A stretch of DNA of 64,000 nucleotides from an uncultured Thermoplasmata archaeon. Its GTDB lineage: Archaea; Thermoplasmatota; DTKX01; GCA-020343715. The notes beneath the pieces are model-generated. The model was not told the DNA's origin. It saw nothing but the letters and a program-made list of their open reading frames with translations, and ran no database searches. This document shows positions 3,030 through 31,336 of the stretch, in pieces. Location of the stretch: assembly GCA_964353355.1 (NCBI GenBank), contig CAYGVT010000066.1:9989-73988 (forward strand), given 5' to 3'. The position numbers and the translations under genes are program-made. Position 1 is the stretch's first letter, and each line of letters begins with the position of its first letter.

Positions 3030-3040
3030 CGATTAAGTAG

Positions 3041-5826: not shown

Positions 5827-5836
5827 TGATATATGC
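5827..5836 (+). promoter_or_regulatory. TATA-box-like element (tgatatatgc) in the divergent queA / surface-protein intergenic region
   Basis: AT-rich octamer in an otherwise 68% GC sequence. It lies about 30 nt upstream of GTG 5866 and about 55 nt upstream of ATG 5890. Confidence 0.35.
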
Positions 5837-5865
5837 CAGTCCTTCATATTTGGTGCTGAGGGGTT

Positions 5866-8931: not shown

Positions 8932-9144
8932 CCCTCAGCCCGGGAACGATCATCCAGCGTCCGTGCCGTATTCCGCAGCTGGCATCGCGAGTCGGTACGG
9001 GCCCTGCCCGACCCTGCTGGGCCACCGACATGGACGCGAGAGGGATGGGGACGAGTGGCCGGGCCGACCCGCGGGAGCGCCCGCACCTCCCACCAACAAC
9101 TTAACAAACCGGCTCCCCCTTGTTGGCGAACCGAGGCGTCGGCG

Positions 9145-10802: not shown

Positions 10803-10893
10803 GGTCTCGGCGCGCGCACACCGCGATGGGTGGGCCCGGGATAGGGAACCTATTTACCGGTACTGACCAATCTCCATACAGGAGGGTCTGGAT

Positions 10894-12426: not shown

Positions 12427-12509
12427 TAAAAGGGGCGTGTCATTAGCGTAGAGCGCGGCACTGTTTCCCCGCTTCCAGCCGTCCAATCCAGGAAACGGGA
12501 GGTGGAACG

Positions 12510-13442: not shown

Positions 13443-13477
13443 GGCTCGTCTCCTCCTCGGGCAACCCCGAGCTAGCC

Positions 13478-14329: not shown

Positions 14330-14352
14330 GTCGATGGCGTCAATAGGTCCCG

Positions 14353-14430
14353 TGGTGGGCCCGCCCGGATTTGAACCGGAGTCTATTGGTCCCGAACCAA
14401 CAAGTATAGACCAAGCTAGCCCACGGGCCC
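14353..14430 (-). tRNA. probable tRNA-Pro (anticodon CGG) with genomically encoded CCA; D-arm atypical
   Basis: Minus strand reads GGGCCCG UG GGCUAGCUUGGUCUAUACUU GUUGG UUCGGGA CCAAU AGAC UCCGG UUCAAAU CCGGG CGGGCCC A CCA. Perfect 7-bp acceptor stem, canonical T-arm and T-loop (UUCAAAU), and a 5-bp anticodon stem with loop UUCGGGA (U33, anticodon CGG, G37). The D-arm region (22 nt) does not form a standard 4-bp stem. Confidence 0.5.
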
Positions 14431-14536
14431 AGGGATGTGGGTCCGGTGAGCACGGAGCGAGTATTTTACGTTTGTGATGATGGCCCGGGGCCCCCAGGAG
14501 GGGCTTGCCAGCATCCGGCCGGCCACGACGAGGCCA

Positions 14537-15427
14537 CTACTCCTCGTCCACGCGCGGCGGTTGCGCGCAGAAAGAGAACCGCTTGCGCATCGCCCTCACC
14601 GCGCGCAGGTCCAGCTCGACCACGGCGAGCGCCTCCTCCTCCTGCATGCGCAGCAGAACGTCGACTCCGTCGGGGGACTCCATGACTCCGAACCGCTGAA
14701 CCCGGGGGGAGACGGCGATGGAGCCGCCCAGCCCCTGGCGCTTCATGAACTCCCCCACCAGCCCCACGGCCGCGACCGGCACGGTGTTCTCGTAGGCGCG
14801 CGCGACTGCCAGCGCCTGGTTGGCGTCCCGCTCCTGGGGGGAGAACGAGCTCGACTGCACGAAAAGGACCTCGGCGCCCTTGTCGACGAGCGAGCAGGCG
14901 ATGCCCGGCACCGCGGCGTCCAGCCCCGCGAGCACGCCCACCCTGACGCCGTCGAGCTCGACGGGCTGCCCCGGCGGTGCGGCGTCGAACCACGGCCTCT
15001 CCGTGGGGTAGTAGGTCGACTTGTTGACCGTGCCCACGACCTCGCCCCGCCTGCCGAGCACGACCGAGGTCAGGAACTGCTGCCGCGGGGCCTCGCACAC
15101 GCGGTTGCGGGTCACGCCGCAAACCACGCACACCCGCGACCGGCGGGCCTGGGCCTGGATCTCCTTGATGGCCTCGTTGGGCAGCGGCGCGACGGGCACG
15201 TCTCCCAGGAAGTACTCCGAGAAGAGTATGGCGCGGGCCTTCTCCCTGGCGGCCTGCTTGACCCACTCCTTGGCCCTAGCGAGGGCGTCGTGGGACGCGC
15301 CCGGGCGCGACCAGTCATGCTCCATCTGGGCGATGGCCACCTTGAAGGTGTCTGGCAAGGGTCGCACCTTTGGACGCTCAACGGGCCGCAGGCCAGATAT
15401 AGCTTTCGGGATGTTGACCGGGCCCAT
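14537..15427 (-). CDS. carbon-nitrogen hydrolase (nitrilase/amidase superfamily)
   Basis: FKVAIAQMEHDW...AILFSEYFLGD...VCVVCGV is the Nit-fold Glu-Lys-Cys catalytic architecture. The start is uncertain between ATG 15427 and a GTG at about 15367. A TATA-like AAAGCTATATCT sits inside the 15427-start extension. Confidence 0.7.
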   Translation of the reverse strand: MGPVNIPKAISGLRPVERPKVRPLPDTFKVAIAQMEHDWSRPGASHDALARAKEWVKQAAREKARAILFSEYFLGDVPVAPLPNEAIKEIQAQARRSRVCVVCGVTRNRVCEAPRQQFLTSVVLGRRGEVVGTVNKSTYYPTERPWFDAAPPGQPVELDGVRVGVLAGLDAAVPGIACSLVDKGAEVLFVQSSSFSPQERDANQALAVARAYENTVPVAAVGLVGEFMKRQGLGGSIAVSPRVQRFGVMESPDGVDVLLRMQEEEALAVVELDLRAVRAMRKRFSFCAQPPRVDEE

Positions 15428-15724
15428 TCGTCCGGCATGCGGGCCATCGCAGGAAGGACAAGGGCCACTGGTCCCTTCCATTGTCACCCTCATCGGCCGT
15501 CCGCCTCGAGCGGGCCGGTGACGGGGTCCCTTCCAGCGCCCCCGGGGCGAGACGGGCCCCACCCTATCGCTCACCTGCAACGCGGCGCTGCTCGCGACCG
15601 TCATGCCCGCCCTCAAGGCCGCGCGCACGGACCCGACGGAGGCCGTCCGGTGGGTGGAGCGAGCACCAGGTCGGGCGGTGCCATCCGCTCGGCATGTCGT
15701 CCATTGCCGAAGGGGGACTTCGGC

Positions 15725-15737
15725 AAAATATAAATAG
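15725..15737 (+). promoter_or_regulatory. archaeal TATA box (aaaatataaatag) about 25-30 nt upstream of ATG 15760, implying a leaderless or near-leaderless transcript
   Basis: Strongly AT-rich 12-mer in a GC-rich background at canonical TATA-to-start spacing. Confidence 0.5.
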
Positions 15738-15759
15738 GCCCCCGGCAAATGCAACGCCC

Positions 15760-16440
15760 ATGGACGAGGACTTCCGCGAGAAGATAGCGGGGGAGATAGT
15801 GCTCTCCAGCGAGCCCGGCAAGACGCTGCGCAAGTGGAGGCTTATCTTCGGCGTGTCCCAGAAGGAGCTCGCGGCCGAGATGGGCATCTCCCACAGCGTC
15901 GTGAGCGACTACGAGGGGGGGCGCAGGAGGTCCCCCACCATCGCCACCGTCCGCCGCGTGGTGGAGGCGCTCATCGACATCGACAAGCGACGCGGCTCGC
16001 CCACCATCTCCAAGCACCGCAGCCGCGGCGAGGGCCGCGCCGTGGTCAAGATGCGCGAGTTCCCCGTGGGGGTCACGTGCAAGCAGTTCGCGAAGACCAT
16101 CAAGGGCCGCGTCGTCTGGGGCGAGGGGCGCATGGACCGCCAGCTCTACGGCTACACGCTGCTGGATTCGCTCAAGGTCATCACCTCGCTCACCTCGTTC
16201 GACTACGTGCAGATCTACGGCTGGAGCTCGGAGCGCGCGCTCATCTTCATGGGCGTGGAGTACGGCCGCAGCCCCATGGTGGCCATCCGCGCCCACCCGC
16301 TCAAGCCGGGCATGGTCGTCTACTGGCGGCCGAAGAACGTGGACGCCCTCGCCGTCAAGCTCGCGCAGATCGAGGGCATCCCGCTGGTCACCACCGAGAT
16401 GGAGCTGGAGCCCATGCTCGAATCACTGGCGGAGCTCTAG
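15760..16440 (+). CDS. XRE-family helix-turn-helix transcriptional regulator with conserved C-terminal domain of unknown function
   Basis: HTH_3 motif LIFGVSQKELAAEMGISHSVVSDYEGGRR. Lies immediately upstream of HMG-CoA synthase (stop TAG 16438-16440, next ATG 16441). Confidence 0.7.
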   Translation: MDEDFREKIAGEIVLSSEPGKTLRKWRLIFGVSQKELAAEMGISHSVVSDYEGGRRRSPTIATVRRVVEALIDIDKRRGSPTISKHRSRGEGRAVVKMREFPVGVTCKQFAKTIKGRVVWGEGRMDRQLYGYTLLDSLKVITSLTSFDYVQIYGWSSERALIFMGVEYGRSPMVAIRAHPLKPGMVVYWRPKNVDALAVKLAQIEGIPLVTTEMELEPMLESLAEL

Positions 16441-17517
16441 ATGGGCAAGGGGGGCAGGTCGATGGACGTAGGTTTCCTGAGCTACGGCATCTGGGTCCCG
16501 CGCCACCGCATCTCGACCGAGGAGATCGCCCGCGTCTGGGGCAAGGACGGTAAGGCGATGGCCGCCGGGCTCGGCGTGAGCAGCAAGTCCGTGCCCGCGG
16601 TCGACGAGGACGTCATCACGATGTCCGTGGAGGCCGCGGAGATGGCCATGAGGCGGTCAGGCATCGGGCCCAAGGACGTGGGCGCCGTCTACGTGGGCTC
16701 CGAGTCGCACCCCTACGCCGTGAAGCCCACGGCCACGGTCGTGGCCGAGGCCATCGGCTCGACACCTGACCTGACGGCGGCCGACTACGAGTTCGCGTGC
16801 AAGGCGGGGACGGCGGCCTTCCAGACGTGCATGGGCCTGGTCAGGTCCGAGATGGTCAAGGCGGGCATGGCCATCGGCGCGGACACCTCCCAGGGCGCGC
16901 CGGGGGACGCGCTGGAGTACTCCGCGTCAGCGGGCGCGGCCGCCTACCTCATCGGCTCCGGCGAGGGCGTCATCGCGCGCATCGACCACACGCTGAGCTA
17001 CACCACAGACACGCCCGACTTCTGGCGTCGCGAGGGCCAGATGTACCCGTCGCACGGGGGCCGGTTCACGGGCGTGCCCGCGTACTTCAAGCACGTGGTC
17101 ACGTGCGGGAAGAACATGCTCGCGCGCGCCGGCACGACCGCCAAGGACTACGACCACGTCGTGCTGCACCAGCCCAACGGCAAGTTCCCCGTGCGGGCGG
17201 CCAAGATGCTGGGGTTCCCGCCCGAGAAGGTGGAGCGGGGGCTGCTCACACCGCGCATCGGCAACACCTACAGCGCGGCCGTGCCGCTGGGGCTCGCGAA
17301 CATCCTCGACGCCGCGCGGCCGGGCGAGCGCATCCTCGTGGTGTCCTACGGCTCGGGCGCCGGCTCGGACGCGTTCGACATCACGGTCACGGACGCGATG
17401 GCGCGCTACCAGCGCAACGCGGACGACCTCGTGGAGACGCGCATAGCCTACCACAAGTTCATCGACTACGCGACCTACGCCAAGTTCCGCGGCAAGATAC
17501 AGATGGGGAGGGGATGA
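16441..17517 (+). CDS. hydroxymethylglutaryl-CoA synthase (archaeal type)
   Basis: 358 aa. Catalytic Cys in EFACKAGTAA; GSESHPYAVKP, HQPNGKF and NTYSAAVPLGL motifs of archaeal HMGCS. The true start may be MDVGFLSYG at 16462. Confidence 0.9.
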   Translation: MGKGGRSMDVGFLSYGIWVPRHRISTEEIARVWGKDGKAMAAGLGVSSKSVPAVDEDVITMSVEAAEMAMRRSGIGPKDVGAVYVGSESHPYAVKPTATVVAEAIGSTPDLTAADYEFACKAGTAAFQTCMGLVRSEMVKAGMAIGADTSQGAPGDALEYSASAGAAAYLIGSGEGVIARIDHTLSYTTDTPDFWRREGQMYPSHGGRFTGVPAYFKHVVTCGKNMLARAGTTAKDYDHVVLHQPNGKFPVRAAKMLGFPPEKVERGLLTPRIGNTYSAAVPLGLANILDAARPGERILVVSYGSGAGSDAFDITVTDAMARYQRNADDLVETRIAYHKFIDYATYAKFRGKIQMGRG

Positions 17518-17518
17518 C

Positions 17519-18688
17519 GTGCGCGAGGTCGCCATCGTCGGGGCGGGCGTGACGCAGTTCGGGGAGCTGTGGGAGCGCTCGCTGCGCGACATAGGGCTCG
17601 AGAGCGGCATGCTCGCGCTCATGGACGCGGGCCTCGAGACCGAGGACGTCGAGGCCCTCTACCTCGGCAACATGTCCGCGGGCAGGTTCATCCAGCAGGA
17701 GCACATCGGCGCGCTCATCGCGGACCACTCGGGCCTCGCGGACCGAGGCGTGCCCGCCACGCGCGTCGAGGCGGGCGGGGCCTCGGGGGGCCTGGCGCTG
17801 CATCAGGCCTACCTCGCCGTCGCGTCCGGCCTCCACGACGTGGTCATGGTGGGCGGCGCGGAGAAGATGACCGACGTGTCCGACCAGGACGCCGAGGAGA
17901 CCACCGGCTTCGCGGCCGACCAGGAGTGGGAGGTGTTCTTCGGGGCGACCCTCGCGTCGCTCTACGCGCTGGTCGCGCGCCGCCACATGCACCTCCACGG
18001 CACGACGAGCGAGCAGCTGGCGGCCGTGGCGGTCAAGAACCACGCGCACGGGGCGGCCAACCCCAAGGCCCAGTTCCAGTCGCGCATCACCATCGAGGAC
18101 GTGCTTCGCGCGAGTCGCGTGGCCGAGCCCCTTGGCGTCTACGACTGCGCGCCCCTGACGGACGGTGGCGCGGCCGTGGTGCTAACCACGCCCGACCGCG
18201 CCCGCGAGCTCGGGAGGCCTTCAATCGTCATCCGCGGCTCCGCCCAGGCGTCCGACACGCTCGCCCTCCACGACCGGTGGTCGCTCACGGAGCAGCGCGC
18301 GACGCGCATCGCGGCCGAGCGCGCGCTCAAGCAGGCGGGCATGTCGCTCTCGGACGTGGACGTGGCCGAGCTCAACGACGCGTTCACCATCGCCGAGGTC
18401 GTCGCGCTCGAGGAGATCGGGTTCGCCAAGCGCGGTGAGGGGGGCCGGTGCGCGCCCGAGGGCCGCACCGCGCTCGGCGGCGAGCTGCCCGTGAACACGT
18501 CGGGCGGGCTCAAGGCCCGCGGCAACCCCTGGGGCGCGACCGGCATCGCGCAGGTGGTGGAGCTCTTCGACCAGCTGGTGGGCCGCGCCAGGGGCAGGCA
18601 GGTCGACGGCGCGCGCGTGGGATTGGCCCACAACGTGGGGGGGACAGGCGCGACCGTCGTCGTGCACGTGCTGGAGGCGGTCCGATGA
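17519..18688 (+). CDS. acetyl-CoA C-acetyltransferase (archaeal thiolase) partnered with HMGCS/DUF35
   Basis: 389 aa with a GTG start. Thiolase motifs VAIVGAGVTQFG, YDCAPLTDGGAAVVL, NTSGGLKARGNPWGATGIAQ, GLAHNVGGTG. Confidence 0.9.
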   Translation: MREVAIVGAGVTQFGELWERSLRDIGLESGMLALMDAGLETEDVEALYLGNMSAGRFIQQEHIGALIADHSGLADRGVPATRVEAGGASGGLALHQAYLAVASGLHDVVMVGGAEKMTDVSDQDAEETTGFAADQEWEVFFGATLASLYALVARRHMHLHGTTSEQLAAVAVKNHAHGAANPKAQFQSRITIEDVLRASRVAEPLGVYDCAPLTDGGAAVVLTTPDRARELGRPSIVIRGSAQASDTLALHDRWSLTEQRATRIAAERALKQAGMSLSDVDVAELNDAFTIAEVVALEEIGFAKRGEGGRCAPEGRTALGGELPVNTSGGLKARGNPWGATGIAQVVELFDQLVGRARGRQVDGARVGLAHNVGGTGATVVVHVLEAVR

Positions 18689-19131
18689 CCGGCGTGAGGT
18701 TCTGGCGCGAGTTCGCCTCGCGCTACCGCATGCTCGCGACGAGGTGCCCGCTGTGCGGGCTGGTCTACTTCCCCCCGCGGGACGTGTGCCGCAAGTGCCG
18801 GCGCGCCTCCGTCGGGAGGATGGAGCGCGTGCCCATGCCCCGCATCGGCAAGGTGATGACCTGCACCGTCGTGCACCAGGGGCAGAAGGGCTTCGAGGAC
18901 CAGGTGCCCTACGTCCTTGCCATCGTGGAGTTCGAGGGCGGCGTCACCGTGATGGGGCAGGTCGTGGACTGCGACACGTGCGACGTGGGCATCGGCATGG
19001 AGGTCAAGCCCGTGTTCCGCCGCATCCGCGAGGAGGGCGAGGCCGGGGTCATCCACTACGGCTACAAGTTCGCGCCGACCTGCTACCCCGTCTGCGCCGT
19101 CGACGAGGAAGTTACCGAGCGGAAGGACTGA
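18685..19131 (+). CDS. DUF35 OB-fold/zinc-ribbon scaffold protein of the archaeal thiolase-HMGCS complex
   Basis: CPLCGLVYFPPRDVCRKC zinc ribbon followed by an OB fold. Overlaps the thiolase stop (ATGA). Confidence 0.85.
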   Translation: MTGVRFWREFASRYRMLATRCPLCGLVYFPPRDVCRKCRRASVGRMERVPMPRIGKVMTCTVVHQGQKGFEDQVPYVLAIVEFEGGVTVMGQVVDCDTCDVGIGMEVKPVFRRIREEGEAGVIHYGYKFAPTCYPVCAVDEEVTERKD

Positions 19132-19141
19132 GGCGGGGGCG

Positions 19142-19471
19142 TCACAGCTTGCCGTCCTTGGCCTTCTTCTGCAGCCGCTTGGAACGCTCCTTGGCCGTGA
19201 AGCCTGTGGCGGCCTCCAGGAACGTGTTCCACCGCCTGATGGTCTCGGCTGCGACCTCGGGGTTCGCCCCCTTGTCGGTCTCCGAGAGGACCTCGAACCG
19301 GTCCTTGGAGACGAGCTTGGCGCGGATGGAAGTGATGGCCCCGTAGGACGTCGTGAGCCAGCCGTCGGGCGTCTGCTCGACGCTGCCACCGAAGTGCTGC
19401 TCCAGCAGCCCCCGCAGCCCGTCCCCTTCGACGTTCTTGTAATGGCCCCGCTTGATGTCATGCACGACCAT
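19142..19471 (-). CDS. conserved hypothetical protein (109 aa)
   Basis: High GC3 coding signature and a clean ORF convergent with the DUF35 gene. No motif recognised. Confidence 0.55.
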   Translation of the reverse strand: MVVHDIKRGHYKNVEGDGLRGLLEQHFGGSVEQTPDGWLTTSYGAITSIRAKLVSKDRFEVLSETDKGANPEVAAETIRRWNTFLEAATGFTAKERSKRLQKKAKDGKL

Positions 19472-19532
19472 GGTCTCCCACCGCCTGCGCAGGGTTCAAT
19501 TACCTGCACCTACAATATTCTTGCGGAGGACC

Positions 19533-19739
19533 ATGCGGCTCGTGCGACCGTGCGCAGTCTGCGGGCGGCCGACGCCATCTTCCTGCCACATGTGCGGTGT
19601 GCCGGTCTGCCACAATTGTGCCGTGCCGCGGAGGCCCGGTCAGGTCCTGTGCCCGAGCTGCTCCGCTGGACGTGCAGGTGGCGATGACGCGGTGCCCCAA
19701 GGCCCTGATGGGCACGAGGGGCCCAGGACGATGGGATAG
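19533..19739 (+). CDS. possible small C4-type zinc-ribbon protein (68 aa)
   Basis: MRLVRPCAVCG...CHMCGVPVCHNCAV...LCPSCS has several CxxC pairs. A TATA-like ctacaatattc lies about 20 nt upstream. GC3 is lower than in neighbouring genes. Confidence 0.3.
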   Translation: MRLVRPCAVCGRPTPSSCHMCGVPVCHNCAVPRRPGQVLCPSCSAGRAGGDDAVPQGPDGHEGPRTMG

Positions 19740-19740
19740 C

Positions 19741-20235
19741 TCACGCGCCCTTGAGCAGGCGGGCCGCCTCGGCCTCCTGCAGCCTCATGGCACGCAGCAC
19801 GTAGCGCAGCGCCTTGCGTCCGATGTCGTCGCGCATCTGCTGCGGCAAGTCGTCCAACTTCTCCTTGCGCGCGCGGTAGAGCTCCAGCCCGAACTCGTTC
19901 CAGTACAGGTAGGCGCTGTCGGGGTCCAGCTCCGCGGACTTGTTGTAGCTCTGCTCCGCGAGCTCGAAGTGGCCCGCCTCGATGGCGAATGCGCCCAGGC
20001 GCGAGTGGAAGAACGGGTTGTCGGGCGCGAGCTCGCACGCGCGCTTGTAGTCGGCGATGACCTCCTCGACGGGGACCTTGGGGACTCCCAGGGCGGATTC
20101 GGCCTTGCCGAAGTGGGCCTCGGCCGACTTGGGGTCGAGCTTGACGGCCTTCTTGAACCGGGCCATCGCCCCCTCGAAGTCCGCATCCGCGAGCTTCCTC
20201 TCACCCGCCTCGATCTCCTTGAGCGCCTCGTCCAT
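19741..20235 (-). CDS. TPR-repeat protein
   Basis: 164 aa. Repeated TPR-like helix pairs: AEAHFGKAESAL, YKRACELAPDNPFFHSRLG, YNKSAELDPDSAYLYWN. Confidence 0.72.
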   Translation of the reverse strand: MDEALKEIEAGERKLADADFEGAMARFKKAVKLDPKSAEAHFGKAESALGVPKVPVEEVIADYKRACELAPDNPFFHSRLGAFAIEAGHFELAEQSYNKSAELDPDSAYLYWNEFGLELYRARKEKLDDLPQQMRDDIGRKALRYVLRAMRLQEAEAARLLKGA

Positions 20236-20460
20236 GGGTCATCACCTGTCCGTCGGTTGCTTGGGATTCCTACATACGTTTCGGCCCGCTCTTAAACCTT
20301 TGGTTTCGTTTGACACGGGAGCGAATGATGGTGCGTCCGTTCCTCTCCTCCCCCCCCCGCACCGGCCGCGGACGGGAGGGGGACCCGTCAACGGGACACG
20401 GCGGCTGCGCGGGGGTCGGGTGCAAACTTGAAGTATGCGTCGCGCCCCTTGTCGTTGGCG

Positions 20461-21168
20461 ATGTTCGCCGACCGCGACGACGCGGGCCGCGCTCTCGGCG
20501 TCGCGCTGCGCGCGAGGCCGTGGGCGCGCCCCGATGCCCGTCCGCTCGTGCTCGCCATCCCGCGCGGGGGCGTCCCCGTGGCCTACCACGCCGCGAGGGC
20601 GCTCGGGGCGCAGCTTGACCTGGTGGTGCCGAGGAAGCTACAGATACCGTGGGAGCCCGAGGCCGGGTTCGGGGCCGTGACCTCCGACGGCACGGTCACC
20701 CTCAACGAGCAACTGGTCGCGCGGCTGCGCCTCACGCGAGAGGAGGTGGGCAAGCTCGCGGCGAGGACGGTCGAGGAGGCAAAGCGGAGGGAGACGGAGT
20801 TCCGCGGCGACGCGCCTCCGCCCGACGTCCGCGGCCGCGCGGTCGTCGTCGTGGACGACGGTATCGCCTCCGGCTTCACGATGGTCGCCGCGCTGCGGTC
20901 GCTGCGCGCGCGCGGCGCCCACACGCTCGCGGTGGGCGCGCCGTGCGCGCCCGCGGATTCCATCGACCGGGTCTCGCCCAACGCCGACGACGTGACCGTG
21001 CTCGAGGTCGACCGCGGCTGGTCCTTCGCGGTGGCCTCGCACTACGATCGGTGGTGGGACCTCGACGACGGAGAGGTCCACACATACCTGCACCGCGCGC
21101 GCGACGAGGGCCTCTTCAGCCCTGGCGCCGTCTTCCTAGGGTCGCCAGACCAGTCCAGAAATCATTAA
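20461..21168 (+). CDS. type I phosphoribosyltransferase-domain protein (putative PRTase)
   Basis: PRPP-binding motif VVVVDDGIASGFTM. N-terminal MFADRDDAGRALG resembles the predicted-PRTase family start. Confidence 0.72.
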   Translation: MFADRDDAGRALGVALRARPWARPDARPLVLAIPRGGVPVAYHAARALGAQLDLVVPRKLQIPWEPEAGFGAVTSDGTVTLNEQLVARLRLTREEVGKLAARTVEEAKRRETEFRGDAPPPDVRGRAVVVVDDGIASGFTMVAALRSLRARGAHTLAVGAPCAPADSIDRVSPNADDVTVLEVDRGWSFAVASHYDRWWDLDDGEVHTYLHRARDEGLFSPGAVFLGSPDQSRNH

Positions 21169-21175
21169 TACCGCG

Positions 21176-23920
21176 ATGGCCCTTTTGAATGCCATGGGAC
21201 GGCTGGCCATCCGCGCGGCGCTGGTCGCTGGCGCGCTCCTCCTCGTGGCGCTGGCACAGGCCGCGCCGCCGGCCTCAGCGGACCGCGGGCCCGAGGACCT
21301 CGCGCTCTCTGGCACGGTGCGCACGGGGGACGGGCTGTCCTTCGTGAGGTCGGCGAGCGTGACGATGCAGGTCTACGACGGCGCTCGCACGGCCGCGAAC
21401 TTGACCTTCACGGGGCTACTGGTCTCCGGCGACGACGGCACCTTCGCCTTCACGGTGCCGGCGGCGGACTGGGACAGGGACCACAACGCGACGCTCCTGG
21501 CCTCATATCCCCTCGTGGGGGCCTCGGGGCAATCCGACTTCGCGCTCAGCGGCGCCACGGCGCAGCTGCGCGACGTGTCCCTCGGGTGGAACCGCACGCT
21601 GGGCATGGGCATCGTCCTGGAGCGCACCCGCGTCGCGACCGCCCGCGACGCCCAGGCCACCTTCGTCATCAACGTCACCAACTCGGGAAACGACACCGAC
21701 GCGGTGCTGCTGCAGGCGCTGCCCGGGGACGCGGGCGTCACGGCCCAGTTCAGCCCCCGCGAGCGCGTCGAGCTCGCCCCCGGCAGGTCGCAGCTGGTGA
21801 GCCTCCTCGTGGAGGGCGACGGCCAGGGCGCTGGCGACCACGGTGTGCTCCTGAGCTGGAGCTCCGAGTGGTTCACCGCGGAGACCGGTCAGGTCGACCT
21901 GGTGTGGGAGGTCGTGCCCGAGGTGCTCCTGTCTGTGTCGGGGACCGGCATCTCATGGTGGCCGGACCCGCTCTACGACGGCGACGCGGCCCTGCTCAAC
22001 TGCACAGTCGCCAACGGCGGTCGCGACCTCGCGCAGGGCGCGAACGTCACCGTCGTCCTCACCCACCCGACCATTGGGGAGGTGCTGCGCGACCGCGTGA
22101 GGCTGGACGTGCCCGCGCTCGGCGCCATGGTCGCCAGCTTCCCCTGGACAGCCGTATACTCCCTGCAGGCGTACGCACTGCGGTTCGAGGTCGAGCACCC
22201 CCTCGACGCAGGCCACGACGATGACACGGCCGAGGTACCTCTGCCGGTAGGCGTGCGCAACATGGCGCCCACGGTCGCGTTCATCTCGCCCGCGGAGGGT
22301 GCGCGCCTCATCGGCATCGTCACGGTGCGTCTCTCCGTCACCGACCCCGACGGCGCGTCGGGCGCCACGGGGGCCTTCGTCCGCATCGACGGCGGCGCGT
22401 GGTCACCGCTTGCGCTCCCGAGCCCCTCCTACCGGTGGGAGACGACGACAGTCGTGGACGGCTGGCACACGCTCGAGGCCTACGCCACCGACAAGTACTC
22501 CGCCTCCGACATCGTGTCCATCACGGTCAAGGTGGAGAACGAGGGCCCCAACGGGCCCCCGGCCGTCCTCGTCGAGGCGCCAGTGGAGGGCGACGTGTTC
22601 GCCTCCCTGCTGTGGGCCAAGGGAACGTCCTACGACCCTGACCCGTCCGATGCGGTCGAGCGCGTCGAGGCGCGCATCGACGACGGCGCGTGGGCGGCCG
22701 CGGACGGCACGGCCCACTGGACGTACGAGGCCGACTGCTCCGGCCTCGCGGCGGGCGCGCACGAGCTTTGGGTGCGCGCGTTCGACGGCATCGACACGTC
22801 CTCGCCCGTGCGTGTCAACTTCACCGTGACCAAGCAGGGCGCGACCGCCCTGGTCCTGGACTTCCATGTGTTCCCGGTCTCCTCCCTGCCGGGCGAGCTC
22901 GTCGAGCTGCGCGGCTCGGTCAGGTACAGTAACGGCGTGCGCGCACGCGCCGCAGAGGTCCACCTCTCGGGGCAGGGCGTGCTGGCGGACAGGTCCGTCA
23001 CCGCCGACGTGCGAGGGGAGTTCACCGATACAATCACCGCGCCAGCGGACGCGGGAGTCTACACCTACAGAGCGCAGGCCTCGGACGGGATGGGCATGTC
23101 CAAGTCCGGGGAGGCGAACCTCACGGTCATCAGGCCCGTCTCGCCGGACCTCATGGTGGCCTCCATCGTCCTCGAGGGCGAGCTCCGGGCGGTGGGCGTC
23201 AACATCACCGTCGGGGTCGAGGTCCGCAACCTAGGCACGGGCCAGGCCGAGTGCAACCTCACCGCGTGGGAGGGGGAGCCCGGCCAGGGCAGGCTCGTCG
23301 TCCGGCGGCTCATCACGGTCTACGACGCGCTCAATGCGTCGTTCGAGTGGGAGCCCTCCGAGGCGGGCAGCGTCGTCCTCTGGGTCGCCTTGGAGGACGT
23401 GAGGCCCCTGGACACGAACGCGAGCAACGACCGCCGCTCGGAGCCCGTCACGGTCCTCGACGTGCCCGACGTGGTGCTGCTCAGGGTCGTGCCCTCGAAC
23501 CTGAGGCCCTACGAGGAGCTCGCGATCACGATCTCGGCCGCGCTCGAGAACACGGGGGGCGTCAACGCCACCTGCGACGTCGAGCTGTTCCTGGACGACC
23601 TCAACGAATCGTCCCGTATCGGAATGAGCACGGACGTGCTGGTGCCCGCCGGCGGGAGCGGCTATGCCACGTTCGACTGGATGCCTGTGAAGGGCCACCA
23701 CACCCTCTACGCGCGTGTGCGCAACGTGCACCCGGTCGAGGTGAGGACGGACAACAACGAGGGGTCCCAGGCCGTCGACGTGACGGGACCCTATGAGCCG
23801 GAGCCCAGGGACGAGCAGGGGTTCCTGCCTGGCCCCTCCGCGGCGCTCGCCGTCGCGGCCGTCGCCGCCTGCGCGGCCGCCGTGCTGCTCGCCCGCTCGC
23901 CTCGACGCCGCCGACGGTGA
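21176..23920 (+). CDS. large secreted surface protein with Ig-like/CARDB-type repeats, many N-glycosylation sequons and a PGF-CTERM-like (PGP) C-terminal anchor
   Basis: 914 aa. Signal peptide LAIRAALVAGALLLVALAQAAPPASA. More than 15 N-x-S/T sequons. C-terminus GFLPGPSAALAVAAVAACAAAVLLARSPRRRRR. Confidence 0.7.
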   Translation: MALLNAMGRLAIRAALVAGALLLVALAQAAPPASADRGPEDLALSGTVRTGDGLSFVRSASVTMQVYDGARTAANLTFTGLLVSGDDGTFAFTVPAADWDRDHNATLLASYPLVGASGQSDFALSGATAQLRDVSLGWNRTLGMGIVLERTRVATARDAQATFVINVTNSGNDTDAVLLQALPGDAGVTAQFSPRERVELAPGRSQLVSLLVEGDGQGAGDHGVLLSWSSEWFTAETGQVDLVWEVVPEVLLSVSGTGISWWPDPLYDGDAALLNCTVANGGRDLAQGANVTVVLTHPTIGEVLRDRVRLDVPALGAMVASFPWTAVYSLQAYALRFEVEHPLDAGHDDDTAEVPLPVGVRNMAPTVAFISPAEGARLIGIVTVRLSVTDPDGASGATGAFVRIDGGAWSPLALPSPSYRWETTTVVDGWHTLEAYATDKYSASDIVSITVKVENEGPNGPPAVLVEAPVEGDVFASLLWAKGTSYDPDPSDAVERVEARIDDGAWAAADGTAHWTYEADCSGLAAGAHELWVRAFDGIDTSSPVRVNFTVTKQGATALVLDFHVFPVSSLPGELVELRGSVRYSNGVRARAAEVHLSGQGVLADRSVTADVRGEFTDTITAPADAGVYTYRAQASDGMGMSKSGEANLTVIRPVSPDLMVASIVLEGELRAVGVNITVGVEVRNLGTGQAECNLTAWEGEPGQGRLVVRRLITVYDALNASFEWEPSEAGSVVLWVALEDVRPLDTNASNDRRSEPVTVLDVPDVVLLRVVPSNLRPYEELAITISAALENTGGVNATCDVELFLDDLNESSRIGMSTDVLVPAGGSGYATFDWMPVKGHHTLYARVRNVHPVEVRTDNNEGSQAVDVTGPYEPEPRDEQGFLPGPSAALAVAAVAACAAAVLLARSPRRRRR

Positions 23921-23935
23921 CGGTGACCTCGCCGA

Positions 23936-25627
23936 ATGGTTGATAACGGCCGCCAGCCATCCACGACCAGCATGGCCGAGCCTACCGCGGACCGGGAGCT
24001 CATCGTCCATCTCTTCGAGGGGGGCGGCATCACGGAGGGCGAGCTGCGCGAGTTCCTCGCCTCCCGCCCGGGCGCGCTGTCGCGGCACCTGACCGAGGAG
24101 TTCGTGCGCACCGTCGGCGCGCTGCGCCGCGGCGACTTCCACGAGGTCGAGGCCAGGGGCTTCGTCGTCCCCGCGCCCTCGAACCTTGAGCCCCTGTTCG
24201 TCGTCGCCCGCCAGCGCATCGAGCGCCTCATGAACTGCCCGACCGCGCTCGCGGTGCTCTCGCCCAGCCCCACTGACGCGCGGTTCGCGCTGCCCGTCGT
24301 CGTGCCGCGCGACGTTGCGCCCGCCATGGAGCTGCGCCACGCCCGGTTCGCGCGCGTGCGCGCGACGCTCCTGAACCTGGAGTCGCTCGGGGGGGCCCCC
24401 GCGCGGTTCCTGCTCGCCCACGAGGTCCACGCGCTCACGCTCGAGGACTTCTTCGCGGCGCGCGCGCCCTCCCTCACGGGCGCCGACGTGCTCCGCCTGC
24501 TACAGGACCGGTTGAACCTGGACTACCCTGAGGTCCGGATGGCGCTCCTCGTGCACCTGTTCTCCGCGCCCCCCTACCTCGACCGCGCAGGGGGCACGGG
24601 CCTCACGCTCCTCGCTTGCGAGGACCGGGCCCGGTGCCTGAGCAAGCGCGCGCTCGAGGACGTGCTGGGCGACATGCGGTACGCGCTCCCGCCCTTCATG
24701 ACGGGGCGGCGCGCGAGCGCCACCATGGACTACCACGGCATCCGGGGGGTGCCCCTGCGGTTCGGACCCTCCAGGATGAGCTGGAGGTTCGATGCCCCCG
24801 CGCGGGAAGCGGCGTCCTTCCTCAAGGACCGCGTCCCCCCGGTCGCGGGCGCGGAGGTGTCGATGTCGACGCGCAGCGTGCTGGAGGTCCACGACTTCGA
24901 GCGGTCCATCAAGGAGATGGCGCGGCACCGCACCGACACGCAGCTGGTGCTCAGCGTTTCGGACCTACCTGTGCTGCTGGGGCGCGACGACGTCACCCGC
25001 GACGAGCGGGCGCTCGCGCTGCACGAGCAGTCTGAGGACATCGCCCACGCGGTCGTGCACGCGGCCGCGCGCGTGCCCGGCACCGTGCTCGAGCCCATCG
25101 AGCGAGGGGCCCTCGTGGACGCCATCCTGCGCGACATCCACAAGGACTGGCCAGACCTCGAGCGGCTGCTGCGGGGCGAGGTGCTCCTGGACCTGGGCGC
25201 GCGCGGTGGCCTCATCGAGCACGCGACGCGCGCGGCGGGCGCGGCCGCGCGCGCGTTCGGCCGGCCCCCCGAGGAGGCGGCCCGCGCCGTCAAGGACATG
25301 TACGTCGACGTGTTCGCGCGGTTCTACGGCGAGCTCGAGCCCACGCTGCGCCACCACATCGCCGTCCTCGAGAAGCGCGAGCGCGCCCTGCTTGAGCAGA
25401 TGGACCGCGACCTGCTCGACGCCATCGAGGGGGCGTTCCTGCAGCTCGACGCGAAGTGGCCCGACGGCTGGCCCTACCCCGAGTTCGAGCGGCTGGTCCT
25501 ATCGCGCGTGCAGCTCGGCCGCGCGCGCCTGAGGCGCAAGTTCGACCTCCTGCGGCAGGAGGGCGAGGTCCGCGAGGTGACGCATGGCGTGTACATGCGC
25601 ATCTGGGGCCTCTCGCGGTTCCTGTGA
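23936..25627 (+). CDS. hypothetical protein (563 aa, alpha-helical, no recognised motif) immediately upstream of mcm
   Basis: Long ORF on the gene strand with high GC3. No Walker or metal motifs seen. Confidence 0.55.
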   Translation: MVDNGRQPSTTSMAEPTADRELIVHLFEGGGITEGELREFLASRPGALSRHLTEEFVRTVGALRRGDFHEVEARGFVVPAPSNLEPLFVVARQRIERLMNCPTALAVLSPSPTDARFALPVVVPRDVAPAMELRHARFARVRATLLNLESLGGAPARFLLAHEVHALTLEDFFAARAPSLTGADVLRLLQDRLNLDYPEVRMALLVHLFSAPPYLDRAGGTGLTLLACEDRARCLSKRALEDVLGDMRYALPPFMTGRRASATMDYHGIRGVPLRFGPSRMSWRFDAPAREAASFLKDRVPPVAGAEVSMSTRSVLEVHDFERSIKEMARHRTDTQLVLSVSDLPVLLGRDDVTRDERALALHEQSEDIAHAVVHAAARVPGTVLEPIERGALVDAILRDIHKDWPDLERLLRGEVLLDLGARGGLIEHATRAAGAAARAFGRPPEEAARAVKDMYVDVFARFYGELEPTLRHHIAVLEKRERALLEQMDRDLLDAIEGAFLQLDAKWPDGWPYPEFERLVLSRVQLGRARLRRKFDLLRQEGEVREVTHGVYMRIWGLSRFL

Positions 25628-25720
25628 GGTGGCGTGCGGGCGTGCGCCACATTCGCTGAACCCCCCGTAAGCAATATCTCCCCCCTTCGCCATAGGGGGC
25701 ATTCCCCGCGGGAGAGGGAC

Positions 25721-27889
25721 ATGGCAGAGGAGTACTCCGAGGAGAGCCTGAAGGAGCTGTGGAGCTCCTTCTTCAAGGAGCACGGCTACGTGCCGCCGCT
25801 GCTCGACATCGCGGCGCGCTACCCCGAGGTCCGCTCGCTCGAGGTCACCTACCCCGACATCTCGCGGTTCAACATCGCGCTCGCGGACCACCTCCTCGAG
25901 CAGCCGCTTGCCGCGCTCGCGGCGGCCGAGAAGGCCTCGCAGCAGCTGATGCCCCCCACCGCGCGGGCGCCCGTGCACATCCGCGTGTCGCAGCTGCCCA
26001 AGGACCCCGAGTACGGCCGCATCGGCATCCGCGACCTGCGCAGCAAGCACCTCGGCCGCCTCATCGCCGTCGAGGGGCTGGTGCGCAAGTCCACCGAGGT
26101 GCGGCCGAGGCTGAAGCTCGCGGTGTACCAGTGCCTGCGGTGCGGGGCCATCCACCACCTCGAGCAGGACTCGCTCGTGCTCAAGGAGCCGCTCGAGTGC
26201 TTCAAGGAGGGCGGCGGCTGCGGCCGGGCGGCCACGTCGACCAAGTTCAGGCTCATCACCAACTACGCGTCCCTCCCGGACCCGTTCGCGACCGCCTACC
26301 AGGGCAAGGCGCTGGACTTCTCCGAGTTCGTCGACACCCAGAAGATCGAGATACAGGAGAGCCCCGAGGGCCTCCGGGGCGGTGACCAGCCCCAGCGGCT
26401 CGTCGCCTACACCCAAGACGACCTCGCCGGCATCCTCTCGCCGGGGGACCGCATCGTCATCAACGGCGTGCTCCGCGAGACCCCCAAGGGCCAGGGCGCG
26501 CAGAAGTCGACGCTGTTCGACATCTTCATGGACGTGGTGTCCATCGAGAAGGAGAAGCGCGACTTCGAGTCCATCGTCATAACCGAGGAGGACGAGCTGC
26601 GCATCAAGGAGACCTCGCACGACGTCGCGCTCATGGACAAGTTCACGACCTCCATCGCCCCCACCATCTACGGCCTGGAGCGCGAGAAGGAGGCGCTGTC
26701 GCTGCAGCTCTTCGGCGGGGTCGCCAAGGTCCTGCCCGACGGCACGCGCATCCGAGGCGACATCCACATAATGCTCGTGGGCGACCCGGGCACGGCCAAG
26801 TCCCAGCTGCTGCGGTACATGACGGCCCTCGCGCCAAGGGCCATCTACACGTCCGGCAAGGCCACGACGGCGGCTGGACTCACCGCGGCCGCGGTGCGCG
26901 ACGAGTTCGGCGAGGGCCGCTGGACGCTCGAGGCGGGCGCGCTCGTGCTCGCGGACAAGGGCCTGTGCGCCATCGACGAGCTCGACAAGATGAACGAGCA
27001 GGACCGCGGCGCGATGCACGAGGCGATGGAGCAGCAGAGCATCTCCGTCGCCAAGGCGGGCATCACGGCCACGCTCCAGTCCCGGTGCGCCATCCTGGGC
27101 GCGGCCAACCCCAAGCTGGGGCGGTTCCACGAGCACGCGCTCATGGTCGAGCAGATAGACCTGCCGCCCGCCCTGTTCTCCAGGTTCGACATCATCTTCT
27201 CCCTCATCGACAAGCCGGACTCGGCCTGGGACGCCAGGCTCGCCGACCACATCCTCAAGGTCCACCGCGTCGGGGAGATAAGCCGCCTCAAGGAGCACCT
27301 GGACGGCCTCCCCCTGCCCGAGGGCATGGAGGAGGAGTCGACGGACGCCGTCATGCCCGCCTTCGAGCCCGAGTTCGTGCGCAAGTACGTGGCCTACGCC
27401 AAGAACAACGTCTTCCCCGTGCTCACGCGGGAGGCGACGGCGGCCATCCGCGAGTACTACATCCGCATCCGCAAGCAGGGCGAGGGCGAGGAGGCCTCTG
27501 TGCCCCTCACCGCGAGGCAGCTCGAGGCGTTCGTCCGTCTCGCGGAGGCCGCGGCCAGGGCGCGGCTCTCCGAGACGGTCGAGCGCGAGGACGCCGATCG
27601 CGGGATCCGCATCGTCGACTACTGGCTCAAGAAGATAATGGGCGGCGAGAAGTTCGACATCGATGTCATCGCCACCGGCATCAGCCACTCCCAGCGCGAG
27701 CGCATGCGCATCCTGCTGGACATCATCGAGAAGCTCACCAAGGGCGGCCGCGGCGCGCTCGAGGACGACGTGCTCGCGGACGCTGAGGGCTTCAACATCG
27801 ACCGCACGCAGGCCAAGGACGTCCTCAAGCGCCTGGTCTCGGACGGCCGCGTCTACCAGCCCACGGTGGGCACCTACAGGATGGTCTGA
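25721..27889 (+). CDS. mcm: MCM replicative helicase (archaeal, full domain set)
   Basis: 722 aa. N-terminal domain with C4 zinc finger (CLRCG...C..GGGC). Walker A GDPGTAKSQ, Walker B CAIDELDKM, sensor/arginine finger SRFDIIF, C-terminal winged helix. Confidence 0.95.
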   Translation: MAEEYSEESLKELWSSFFKEHGYVPPLLDIAARYPEVRSLEVTYPDISRFNIALADHLLEQPLAALAAAEKASQQLMPPTARAPVHIRVSQLPKDPEYGRIGIRDLRSKHLGRLIAVEGLVRKSTEVRPRLKLAVYQCLRCGAIHHLEQDSLVLKEPLECFKEGGGCGRAATSTKFRLITNYASLPDPFATAYQGKALDFSEFVDTQKIEIQESPEGLRGGDQPQRLVAYTQDDLAGILSPGDRIVINGVLRETPKGQGAQKSTLFDIFMDVVSIEKEKRDFESIVITEEDELRIKETSHDVALMDKFTTSIAPTIYGLEREKEALSLQLFGGVAKVLPDGTRIRGDIHIMLVGDPGTAKSQLLRYMTALAPRAIYTSGKATTAAGLTAAAVRDEFGEGRWTLEAGALVLADKGLCAIDELDKMNEQDRGAMHEAMEQQSISVAKAGITATLQSRCAILGAANPKLGRFHEHALMVEQIDLPPALFSRFDIIFSLIDKPDSAWDARLADHILKVHRVGEISRLKEHLDGLPLPEGMEEESTDAVMPAFEPEFVRKYVAYAKNNVFPVLTREATAAIREYYIRIRKQGEGEEASVPLTARQLEAFVRLAEAAARARLSETVEREDADRGIRIVDYWLKKIMGGEKFDIDVIATGISHSQRERMRILLDIIEKLTKGGRGALEDDVLADAEGFNIDRTQAKDVLKRLVSDGRVYQPTVGTYRMV

Positions 27890-27984
27890 GAGGCCCTGTT
27901 GTTCGCCGCCATGCGAACCTCCTGCGAATCTATAAAAACCCACGGGTGGCTAGCATGGGTGCCAGCATACCCGAGGGTGCCCAC

Positions 27985-28284
27985 ATGATCTACGTGAAGG
28001 TCCACAAGCGGGGCGGCCATGTGTGCGCGGCCGCGTGCGACGAGAAGCTGCTGGGGGCGACGCTCGAGGACGGGCCCTACTGCGTCATGGTCAAGGAGTC
28101 CTTCTTCAAGGGCGAGCTCGTCGATGACCACGACGAGGAGACGCAGGCCGTGTTCAGGCGCGCGAGCTCGCTCAACCTGTTCGGCGAGCATGCGGTCGCG
28201 CTCGGCGTGCGGGCGGGTTGCATCGACGAGGCGACCGTCGTGCGCATCAAGGGAGTGCCGCACGCGCAGATGTTCATTGTATAG
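27985..28284 (+). CDS. DUF424-family archaeal protein
   Basis: The MIYVKVHKRGGHVCAAACDEKLLG N-terminus is typical of DUF424. The ORF extends to 27946. Confidence 0.55.
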   Translation: MIYVKVHKRGGHVCAAACDEKLLGATLEDGPYCVMVKESFFKGELVDDHDEETQAVFRRASSLNLFGEHAVALGVRAGCIDEATVVRIKGVPHAQMFIV

Positions 28285-28398
28285 CGTGCCGGGCGGTGGG
28301 CCATCCGGGCGATGCTGGCGCCCTTTTTCACACCTCTGGAAATCTTGCGCAAACGGTTATGTAGTACTGCCACCTTCTACATTCCTGGAGGGCTACTG

Positions 28399-29256
<858 letters not shown>

Positions 29257-29758: not shown

Positions 29759-31336
29759 CTAGCCCCATCCGTACGGGTAGACGTGGTGCGCGTGCACGGG
29801 GTGGAAGGCGTAATCCCTGACCGCGAAGCGATGCAGCGATAGCTCGTGGAATGCCAGCAGCCCCACAACCATCGCGGCGGCCGTCGCGGCCGTCAGGCCC
29901 ACGATGGCCATCGACGACGGGACGGCGGGCATCGCGCGAGGACCGAGGAGCGGCCTCGTGGGCTGTCCCGGGGCAGGCGGGGCCTCCCTCTTCACCGCGG
30001 CCTGGACCGATGACTGCATGAGCATCTTGACGCCCAGGCTGAGGTTCTCGGCCCCGCCCAGGGAGAGCTTGTGCGCCATGATGGCGGCGGCCGCGAGGCG
30101 CACGTTGTCCATGGCCTCCTCGACGCCGTAGGGCAGCATCGCCACCATCGCCGAGGTGACCCCCATCCCCCCGCCGTTGAACCGGCCGAGGGCGGCCATC
30201 GCCGCGTTGTAGCGCTCGACCGTGGCCGCCACGTCCTGCTGCGAGACCGCCATGAGCGCGGCCGCGACGGTGACGTCGACCGCAGCTGCCGAGGATGTGT
30301 ATATGCCATCCCGCAGAGAGGTGAAGTTCCCGAGGAGGGCGGGGCTTGCGCCCGTCCGCTCGGCGCAGGCGAGCAGCGCGCCCGCGCTCGGCCAGCCCGG
30401 GCAGTAGGCCTCCGTGAGCTCGACCGTCCTCTGGACCAGCGTCGAGGCCTCCACCCCGCCCATGAGCAGGATGGCGGCCGCCCTGACCTGGTCCTCCCTG
30501 ACGTAGTTGGCCGCCCAGGGCCGGGACAGGAGCCCCCGCGCGAAGGCGACCAACCTGGCCAGGTCCGCCTCGTCCCTGGCGGCCAGCACGGCCGTCTCGG
30601 CCACGGTGATGAGCGCGGTCTCCTTGACCGCGGACGTGCCCGAGAGCTCGCCGTAGGCCCTCGTGAAGAGGCGTGCGGCCTCCTCTGGCGTGCCCTCCCT
30701 GCCCGCGAGCCCGACGGATGCGAGCCTCAGGTGTATCTCGTCCGTTGACCTGTTGGCGGGTGAGATGGCCTTGAGGATGGTCTGCGCGCGTGCCGCGCGC
30801 GAGTCGAAGTGCGCCCGGACGGCGTCCACCTCCTCCACGAACGCCCTGATGTCGGTCGCCCAGAGCCTCGACGCGCGCTGCTCGAGCGTCTGCAGCGCCT
30901 CATGGCCCCTGTAACTGACGTGGAAGGGACGGCCGTTGAGCGCGCCGGCCCCGCGCCGCTCCGTGGCGTCCTGGACGAGCCCCAGGTAGCGGGTCCTGAT
31001 GGCCCTCAGGTCCCGCTCTGTCTCCTCCAGCCTGTCCTGCGCCTTCCTGTAGGCCGGCTGTTGCCGGTAGAGGGCACCAGGGGAGCCGCTCGCGCCAGTC
31101 GCGAACGCCTCGAGCTGCGCGCGCAGCGTCTCCTGCTCCGACACGAGGGCCGACATGTGCTGGCGGATGGCTTCCAGGTCCTCGCCGGATGCCGCGGCGC
31201 CACCCCCGCCCGCGACGGGCGTGGGCGCGACCAGCCCCAGCGAGAGCAGCTCCGAGACGGTCTCCGGGTCGGCCTTGACGTCCGCTCCTGCTGCGAGGGC
31301 CTTCAGTACGTCCCTCGCCTCGACGCTCTTGCTCAT
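29759..31336 (-). CDS. hypothetical tail-anchored membrane protein (N-terminal coiled coil, Ala-rich repeats, C-terminal TM plus His-rich tail)
   Basis: 525 aa from the ATG at 31336. A GGAGGGTGG SD lies 5 nt upstream. The start overlaps the upstream gene's stop (ATGA). TM helix IVGLTAATAAAMVVGLLAF. Confidence 0.55.
   Translation of the reverse strand: MSKSVEARDVLKALAAGADVKADPETVSELLSLGLVAPTPVAGGGGAAASGEDLEAIRQHMSALVSEQETLRAQLEAFATGASGSPGALYRQQPAYRKAQDRLEETERDLRAIRTRYLGLVQDATERRGAGALNGRPFHVSYRGHEALQTLEQRASRLWATDIRAFVEEVDAVRAHFDSRAARAQTILKAISPANRSTDEIHLRLASVGLAGREGTPEEAARLFTRAYGELSGTSAVKETALITVAETAVLAARDEADLARLVAFARGLLSRPWAANYVREDQVRAAAILLMGGVEASTLVQRTVELTEAYCPGWPSAGALLACAERTGASPALLGNFTSLRDGIYTSSAAAVDVTVAAALMAVSQQDVAATVERYNAAMAALGRFNGGGMGVTSAMVAMLPYGVEEAMDNVRLAAAAIMAHKLSLGGAENLSLGVKMLMQSSVQAAVKREAPPAPGQPTRPLLGPRAMPAVPSSMAIVGLTAATAAAMVVGLLAFHELSLHRFAVRDYAFHPVHAHHVYPYGWG

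Follow-up and report, generated by a model that had tools for sequence, protein, structure and literature searches.

Pro-Gly-led C-terminal tails resembling PGF-CTERM on two predicted surface glycoproteins of a GC-rich uncultured archaeon

Euryarchaeal S-layer glycoproteins with a PGF-CTERM tail (PGF, Pro-Gly-Phe) are built as a string of immunoglobulin (Ig)-like domains followed by this C-terminal sorting signal, and in the S-layer proteins of Methanospirillum hungatei (Mhun_2263) and Haloferax volcanii the Ig-like domains, a spacer and the signal stand in that order. The NCBI-curated Loki-CTERM (NF033507) and Heimdall-CTERM (NF045529) models provide precedent for lineage-restricted variants of a PGF-like tail. 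Here, we compare with these systems the C-termini of two secreted proteins, 914 and 308 amino acids (aa) long, that are encoded on a 64-kb stretch of contig CAYGVT010000066.1 from an uncultured archaeon (hereafter the window). Both end in Pro-Gly-Pro (PGP), a hydrophobic helix and an Arg cluster. The most fitting description of these tails is an anchor module akin to PGF-CTERM, led by PG and with a free third residue that follows GC content.

The larger protein has the following features:

21176 to 23920, plus strand: gene of the 914-aa secreted, sequon-rich surface protein with a string of Ig-like beta-sandwich domains (Big_7, CARDB); from the open reading frame (ORF), Pfam, the AlphaFold2 (AF2) model and orthologues
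21176 to 21280, plus strand: N-terminal Sec-type signal peptide (MALLNAMGRLAIRAALVAGALLLVALAQAAPPASA), its cleavage site an estimate only; from sequence, hydropathy and AF2
23828 to 23836, plus strand: Pro885-Gly886-Pro887, abutting the C-terminal helix; from sequence and orthologues
23837 to 23893, plus strand: C-terminal transmembrane helix SAALAVAAVAACAAAVLLA, residues 888-906; from hydropathy and AF2
23894 to 23917, plus strand: predicted cytoplasmic basic tail RSPRRRRR; from sequence, with the stop codon at 23918-23920

The protein begins with MALLNAMGRLAIRAALVAGALLLVALAQAA and ends, immediately before the stop codon, with EPRDEQGFLPGPSAALAVAAVAACAAAVLLARSPRRRRR (in a longer excerpt, GPYEPEPRDEQGFLPGPSAALAVAAVAACAAAVLLARSPRRRRR), so that its tail reads FLPGP-SAALAVAAVAACAAAVLLA-RSPRRRRR. 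An earlier note on this DNA had described the tripartite PGF-CTERM layout here with PGP in place of PGF, and the residue positions listed above bear it out; the start that it gave, 23816, is the Gln codon one residue ahead of the peptide it quoted, a trivial difference. The signal peptide has its hydrophobic segment at residues 10-28 by hydropathy and appears as a low-confidence helix at residues 4-25 in the AF2 model. That model (mean predicted local distance difference test score, pLDDT, 81.8) is all-beta, with an unbroken run of beta-sandwich domains that leads into a disordered linker (residues 875-887) and then the C-terminal helix. Pfam matches to Big_7 (E 3.8e-12) and CARDB (E 2.7e-11) were found, and Foldseek searches with the model returned generic Ig-domain strings only, at TM-scores of about 0.1-0.2. 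Asn residues stand in N-X-S/T sequons in 15 of 29 cases, compared with 3.7 +/- 1.8 expected from shuffled sequences and a maximum of 10 in 2000 shuffles.

The 914-aa protein is laid out like Mhun_2263 and the H. volcanii S-layer protein: a signal peptide comes first, then some 9-10 beta-sandwich domains and a short disordered spacer, and an anchor module forms the C-terminus. Its gene lies in a conserved core neighbourhood. It differs from them in that no sequence relationship is detectable beyond generic Ig-like domains. Orthologues are 43-80% identical and conserve synteny, with a block that comprises HMG-CoA synthase, thiolase, DUF35, DUF5611, a TPR protein, in some cases a phosphoribosyltransferase (PRTase), the 914-aa gene, an uncharacterised 550-aa protein, MCM, DUF424 and phosphoribosyl pyrophosphate (PRPP) synthase. 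This block spans 15481-29256 of the window and matches positions 1-18071 of locus L021 from a relative that is only 44% identical. The 914-aa gene belongs to the core set of its lineage, and its place in the block would fit a major envelope protein, perhaps of the S-layer kind. A search of the genome collection with this family found only two loci, both 43% identical and both in cold-seep metagenome-assembled genomes (MAGs) labelled 'Methanobacteriota archaeon'; a metagenome scan gave nine loci, of which those long enough to compare keep the same gene neighbourhood and which add no new proteome sample. Immediately downstream, a 563-aa ORF (23936-25627) begins 15 bp past the stop codon of the 914-aa gene, a position conserved in all relatives; its only family match, to HTH_20 at the N-terminus, is weak (E 0.0018).

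The second protein bears its tail in a different setting:

59842 to 60768, plus strand: gene of the 308-aa secreted, sequon-rich protein, unrelated to the 914-aa protein; from the ORF, orthologues and BLASTP
59842 to 59904, plus strand: signal peptide ending in a lipobox-like T-A-G-C; from sequence and orthologues
60667 to 60675, plus strand: Pro276-Gly277-Pro278; from the orthologue alignment
60676 to 60729, plus strand: C-terminal transmembrane segment AAAMAAGALLAVSCVAAL; from sequence and hydropathy
60730 to 60765, plus strand: basic tail RRRTALNRRPPG, 12 aa, exceeding the typical PGF-CTERM length; from sequence and orthologues

Its tail reads ETPGP-AAAMAAGALLAVSCVAAL-RRRTALNRRPPG, and its C-terminus is GEEETPGPAAAMAAGALLAVSCVAALRRRTALNRRPPG (also given as IGEEETPGPAAAMAAGALLAVSCVAALRRRTALNRRPPG) before the stop codon. 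The true start is almost certainly the ATG at 59842 (MRNFLVVVCAAALLCVSTAGC) and not 59509, because that position is the start chosen by gene callers on four other assemblies and the start of every orthologue. The protein matches no family in Pfam or NCBIfam. The basic region, RRR plus nine more residues, is less canonical than that of the 914-aa protein. All six orthologues compared share Gly20 and Cys21, and the protein may therefore carry an N-terminal lipid anchor as well as the C-terminal helix, an unusual double tether suggested by its lipobox-like sequence; the enzymes of archaeal lipoprotein biogenesis have only recently been described (PMC12462473). Its gene converges on that of an M50 (site-2 protease family) peptidase (60746-62992, minus strand), with the two 3' ends overlapping by 23 bp; the peptidase has a C-terminal extension of about 370 aa and contains 10 N-X-S/T sequons in the whole protein.

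The earlier note had also reported the same PGP tail on a second secreted protein, and this was confirmed, with the motif and the ORF end where the list places them. Two Pro-Gly-helix-Arg tails thus lie within one 64-kb window, on proteins that are unrelated to each other (best BLASTP E 0.61). In each, PGP touches the helix with no spacer and a basic cluster follows, leaving 8 and 12 residues beyond the helix; the first Arg comes 22 residues after Pro in the 914-aa protein and 21 after it in the 308-aa protein, compared with 19-21 in related PGF tails. Both proteins have signal sequences, and sequons are enriched about 5-fold in both (6 of 10 Asn in the 308-aa protein, compared with 1.2 expected from shuffles), while window proteins outside the secreted and membrane set have about 10% of their Asn in sequons; both are therefore very probably exported N-glycoproteins. 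To this extent the claim that they are heavily N-glycosylated surface proteins finds support from sequence; the lipid anchor that the earlier note also suggested is weighed below. The window is 70.3% GC, with 6.4% Pro and 9.5% Gly in its proteins. At this composition PGP is expected at a given position with a probability of about 4e-4, which indicates that its presence at the helix edge of the window's only two short-tailed C-terminal anchors is not an accident of composition, although Pro and Gly are commonly preferred where helices begin. Chance composition as the sole cause of the tails was accordingly rejected, on these figures together with the enrichment in related proteins given below.

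Taken together, the two tails may constitute a module that anchors Sec-exported, N-glycosylated surface proteins in the membrane or sorts them, in which Pro-Gly sits at the outer end of a roughly 19-residue Ala/Val/Leu helix and an Arg cluster and the stop codon follow. It would be a degenerate 'PGx' counterpart to PGF-CTERM, processed by an ArtA-like or other intramembrane enzyme. We hold this reading tentatively, at a probability of roughly 0.42, which covers the whole statement including enzymatic cleavage and the lipid step. Judging from the N-terminal signal peptides, the proteins would be exported through Sec; the C-terminal helix would then serve as a stop-transfer anchor, with the Arg cluster left in the cytoplasm as the positive-inside rule predicts, and the ectodomain would be N-glycosylated, as the sequon enrichment suggests. 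Finally, by analogy with ArtA of H. volcanii, an archaeosortase-A-like intramembrane enzyme could cut at or near Pro-Gly and join the protein to a lipid. The sequences give a solid basis for inferring export, anchoring in the membrane and glycosylation, which hold either way; cleavage and lipid attachment would follow by analogy only. An alternative possibility, almost as likely, is that the tails are ordinary uncleaved type-I anchors in which the Arg residues are the positive-inside signal and Pro-Gly is a generic feature of helix starts or linker ends. The resemblance to PGF-CTERM would then be generic, or have come down together with the last Ig-like domain, and no sorting enzyme would be involved.

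The distribution of Pro-Gly in related surface proteins speaks for a sorting module and against a plain anchor. A profile search of 1.84 billion cluster representatives yielded 150 Ig-domain surface proteins; once the relatives of both window families had been removed, 67 of the independent representatives, clustered at 50%, had a C-terminal helix. Pro-Gly was found at the helix edge in 15 of the 41 with tails of at most 12 aa, compared with 2 of the 26 with longer tails (Fisher p 0.009). Against a background of 4.4% per 14-residue window, 15/41 represents an enrichment of about 8-fold (binomial p 1e-10), and the cases without Phe, taken alone, remain significant (9/35, p 1.5e-5). Pro-Gly is thus tied to short tails and not to C-terminal helices generally. 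The third residue in these cases is Phe in six, Ala in three, Pro in two (plus PGPG cases), Met in one and Leu in one, and the first basic residue lies 18-22 residues from Pro throughout, whether in PGF or in another form (PGP, PGA, PGM, PGY), so that the spacing equals that of tails that look like bona fide PGF signals. The tail also recurs on unrelated ectodomains. Among the three secreted proteins other than the query that have a short-tailed C-terminal helix on GC-rich contigs, Pro-Gly stands at the helix edge in two (binomial p 0.006): the 308-aa window protein and a further unrelated carrier, a 204-aa protein on locus L028 (IPGLHTG...RLNRGSKP). The third, a 374-aa protein on L025, lacks it (ETPALGLG...RRG). 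In addition, orthologues with PGM or PGY give sub-threshold matches to the PGF-CTERM model TIGR04126, at 20.2 (P0033), 20.0 (P0054) and 13.6 bits (P0040) against a curated cutoff of 24.5 bits.

Comparison with the described signal is instructive on both sides. The tails resemble PGF-CTERM in their extreme C-terminal position and in the way Pro-Gly abuts a helix of about 19-20 residues that is followed by an Arg cluster; their carriers, too, are predicted to be Sec-exported and N-glycosylated, with Ig-like domains in the case of the 914-aa protein, and homologous Big_7 proteins bear PGF at the same place and spacing. They differ in having Pro for Phe, a residue that varies among orthologues, and in matching no curated model; their linkers are acidic (EPEPRDEQ, GEEE), without the Thr/Ser-rich linker; and the window organism is neither a halophile nor a recognised methanogen, with no processing enzyme found in the small amount of DNA examined. 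Haft (bioRxiv 10.1101/2023.06.07.544157) lists eight attributes of C-terminal sorting signals, including three or more residues of the signature that hardly vary. Six of the eight were found: position near the C-terminus, a transmembrane helix, a basic cluster, a signal peptide, carriers that are unlike one another outside the signal (the two window proteins and the L028 protein), and homologues with a different signal or none (LGPxDPF...FLRHS, LLGGLTP...RYW, long tails, PGF or '...LWARR').

Several observations weigh against the sorting module, and many of them are what an uncleaved anchor would predict. With regard to models, neither TIGR04126 nor any other CTERM model in NCBIfam (E up to 10) matched the whole proteins or their isolated 65-aa and 55-aa tails, and the Pfam PGF-CTERM family PF18204 (E up to 1) matched neither window protein; the comparison with TIGR04126 that the earlier note had proposed as a check thus came out negative. 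PGP-type tails elsewhere (P0068, P0170, P0175, P0138) gave no TIGR04126 score. This result is less decisive than it seems, since related proteins with canonical-looking SPGFG...KRRR tails (SPGFGTALVVLGLLGAMMLAKRRR, GPGFGLPMVILGLLSVSVLLLLRRR) score only 14.6 and 16.7 bits, below the cutoff and at best on a par with the PGM and PGY orthologues, and the model therefore appears insensitive outside its seed taxa; others have rebuilt a short PGF-CTERM model for their own taxa because of the same insensitivity. Loki-CTERM and Heimdall-CTERM match the related SPGFG tails as weakly as TIGR04126 does, and the window tails match neither. With regard to the motif, the PGF signature itself is absent: both window proteins have PGP, the third residue in orthologues is Pro, Ala, Met, Tyr, Thr or Ser, and the two families have only Pro and Gly in common, which falls short of Haft's signature residues. 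The work of Abdul Halim et al., going by its title, reportedly found that permuting PGF blocks ArtA processing in H. volcanii; this would make the motif important for the known enzyme, and exchanging Phe for Pro alters it drastically.

Further points of this kind come from the proteins themselves. Pro-Gly has been lost in some orthologues of the 914-aa protein (family 1), which keep the helix and a short tail: LPATG in P0007 and P0008, LGP[FI]DPF...FLRHS in P0011-P0018 and LLGGLTP...RYW in the cold-seep MAGs. In more distant homologues of full length (P0057, P0069, P0119), which lack Pro-Gly, the helix leads into cytoplasmic tails of 24-32 aa, and these are ordinary anchors; tails in the family of the 308-aa protein (family 2) reach 12-18 aa, longer than in typical PGF-CTERM. 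In the related set, 26 of the 41 short-tailed anchors lack Pro-Gly, and many of the carriers counted as independent share Big_7, so that their tails may be alike by common descent and not through selection by a sorting enzyme. Within the window, three further surface proteins with signal peptides (5866-8931; 10894-12426, which has BNR repeats; and 34735-36267) are ordinary type-I anchors. They share with the two PGP proteins the sequon-bearing ectodomain and the single helix followed by Arg or Lys. They differ from them in their Pro- and Arg-rich cytoplasmic tails of 38 to about 210 aa, whereas the 914-aa and 308-aa proteins stop 8 and 12 residues past the helix. One of the three, 5866-8931, has VPGS at the edge of its anchor helix and a cytoplasmic tail of about 210 aa, and Pro-Gly therefore also precedes ordinary anchors in this organism.

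The processing enzyme is the last of these points. No archaeosortase- or exosortase-like gene was seen in the 64-kb window or the fetched loci, in which no targeted search with seed sequences was made; the only polytopic proteins of the window are TauE and the M50 peptidase. As only a few percent of the genome is covered, this cannot count as absence. The contigs that bear PGP-, PGA- and PGM-type proteins, mostly 2-6 kb long, likewise showed no exosortase-family neighbour. On one of them, a 72% GC contig, a 320-aa protein with about eight predicted helices (L010, 579-1541) is encoded 58 bp upstream of P0068 (TPGPGLGLVLAALGAAAAAAYRRR) on the same strand; considered as an enzyme candidate, it has no Pfam or NCBIfam match and is unrelated to the TctA transporter upstream of P0054.

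It was further suggested in the earlier note that PGP is a lineage-specific archaeosortase recognition motif, and it is improbable that the tails form such a distinct 'PGP-CTERM' class with a specialised archaeosortase. PGP is indeed kept in all orthologues of at least 77% identity in both families: family 1 tails in this range read FLPGP[SA]A, and family 2 has Pro as the third residue at 81% identity or more. PGP tails also recur in at least five other GC-rich proteins (P0068, P0170, P0175, P0138, P0182). Beyond this range the motif dissolves. Family 1 tails at 54-58% identity are FLPGAGA or FLPATGA, and those at about 45% identity, together with those of P0040 and P0048, two shorter proteins resembling family 1 that the representative search returned, are PLPGYGG, PLPGTGL, IPGYGG and IPGSSA. 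A hydrophobic residue, Pro, Gly and a variable residue are thus kept to about 45% identity (LPGP, LPGA, LPGY, LPGT, IPGY, IPGS), except in the clades that have lost Pro-Gly. In family 2, IGEEE-x-P-G is invariant down to 52% identity while the helix diverges, and the third residue is Met at 52-56%. The claim thus fails on orthologues that carry PGA, PGM, PGY, PGT, PGS or no Pro-Gly at all, and also because the third residue follows amino-acid composition, a proxy for GC content, and not the protein family. When 5.8 billion proteins were searched with a profile made from ten PGP-type tails, only a single 67-aa fragment was found, a poor yield because the profile is too short and too low in complexity for a database of that size. 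A sortase-type signal of the LPXTG kind, cut by a sortase homologue, was rejected and is very unlikely: FLPATG in P0007 and P0008, PLPGTG in P0013 (each followed by a helix and a basic tail) and LPGPS in the window protein recall it, but neither P0007, P0013 nor the window protein matches an LPXTG model (E up to 10), the spacer usual in LPXTG signals is missing between motif and helix, family 2 (ETPGP) has no Leu-Pro, and neither a sortase gene nor a sign of a wall polymer for attachment was seen.

Two other kinds of C-terminus in these proteins deserve mention in their own right. A less GC-rich clade of 914-aa orthologues (P0011-P0018; loci L004, L005 and L020; contigs of 64-65% GC) has two conserved tail types, LGP[FI]DPF with a helix and FLRHS or FLRYN, and LLGGLTP with a helix and RYW, each extending only about three residues past the helix; they may represent a different anchor type within the same protein family. 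The Big_7 surface proteins P0042, P0059, P0061, P0062 and P0164 share a recurring ending, G-G-[LI]-x-[LA]-W-A-[RW]-[RS] (for example GLILWARR, GGLALWARR and GIGLWAWSRQ), with no Pro-Gly and a very short tail, which may be a separate anchor or sorting type.

If the PGx module is nonetheless what the tails represent, base composition offers a plausible account of its third residue. Phe is found in the AT-richer carriers and Pro or Ala in the GC-rich ones, and the ratio of GARP to FYMINK amino acids is 0.4-1.5 in PGF carriers compared with 2.1-3.5 in PGP carriers (Mann-Whitney p 0.0007). PGL, PGS and PGP can be reached from the Phe codon by T-to-C changes, from which we infer a link to GC pressure. 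It can be proposed, as a doubtful scenario, that uncultured GC-rich euryarchaea, possibly Thermoplasmatota-like, use a 'PGx-CTERM' form of sorting, either with relaxed specificity at the Phe position or with a different intramembrane enzyme; that GC pressure rewrote PGF to PGL, PGS, PGP or PGA; and that curated models miss the lipid-anchored surface proteome of this lineage.

Regarding the organism, the PRPP synthase of the window is closest to the enzymes of Methanocaldococcus and Thermoplasma, and the only solved relative of its DUF5611 protein is Thermoplasma Ta0095; these relationships give a hint, no more, of a euryarchaeal and possibly Thermoplasmatota-like affiliation. A halophilic (salt-in) origin was rejected, as the median isoelectric point is 6.7. 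Other features of the window were also noted. A 1201-aa fusion of serine hydroxymethyltransferase and glycine-cleavage T protein (54032-57637, minus strand) adjoins the GcvH gene (53564-53965). Two minus-strand genes at 29759-32380, encoding about 490 aa (MSKSVEARDV..., with a C-terminal helix) and about 370 aa (MLVVPTDGEP...), are masked by longer spurious ORFs that enclose them and show up only in a plot of GC by codon position; in the relative represented by L021, a single 439-aa gene takes the place of the 29.3-36.3 kb stretch. The only RNA gene detected in the window is a tRNA-Pro (CGG) at 14353-14430 on the minus strand.

The significance of the tails depends on which of the readings holds. 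If they are plain anchors, the finding is an ordinary one. If they are true archaeosortase-type substrates, recognition of PGF-CTERM would be far more tolerant at the Phe position than one would expect from the H. volcanii work and the curated models. Annotation pipelines would then overlook the anchored surface proteome of uncultured, GC-rich archaea in metagenomes of wetlands, sediments and seeps, and with it, probably, the major glycoprotein of S-layer type. The tails would then also offer a clear case of genomic base composition reshaping the recognition motif of a protease.

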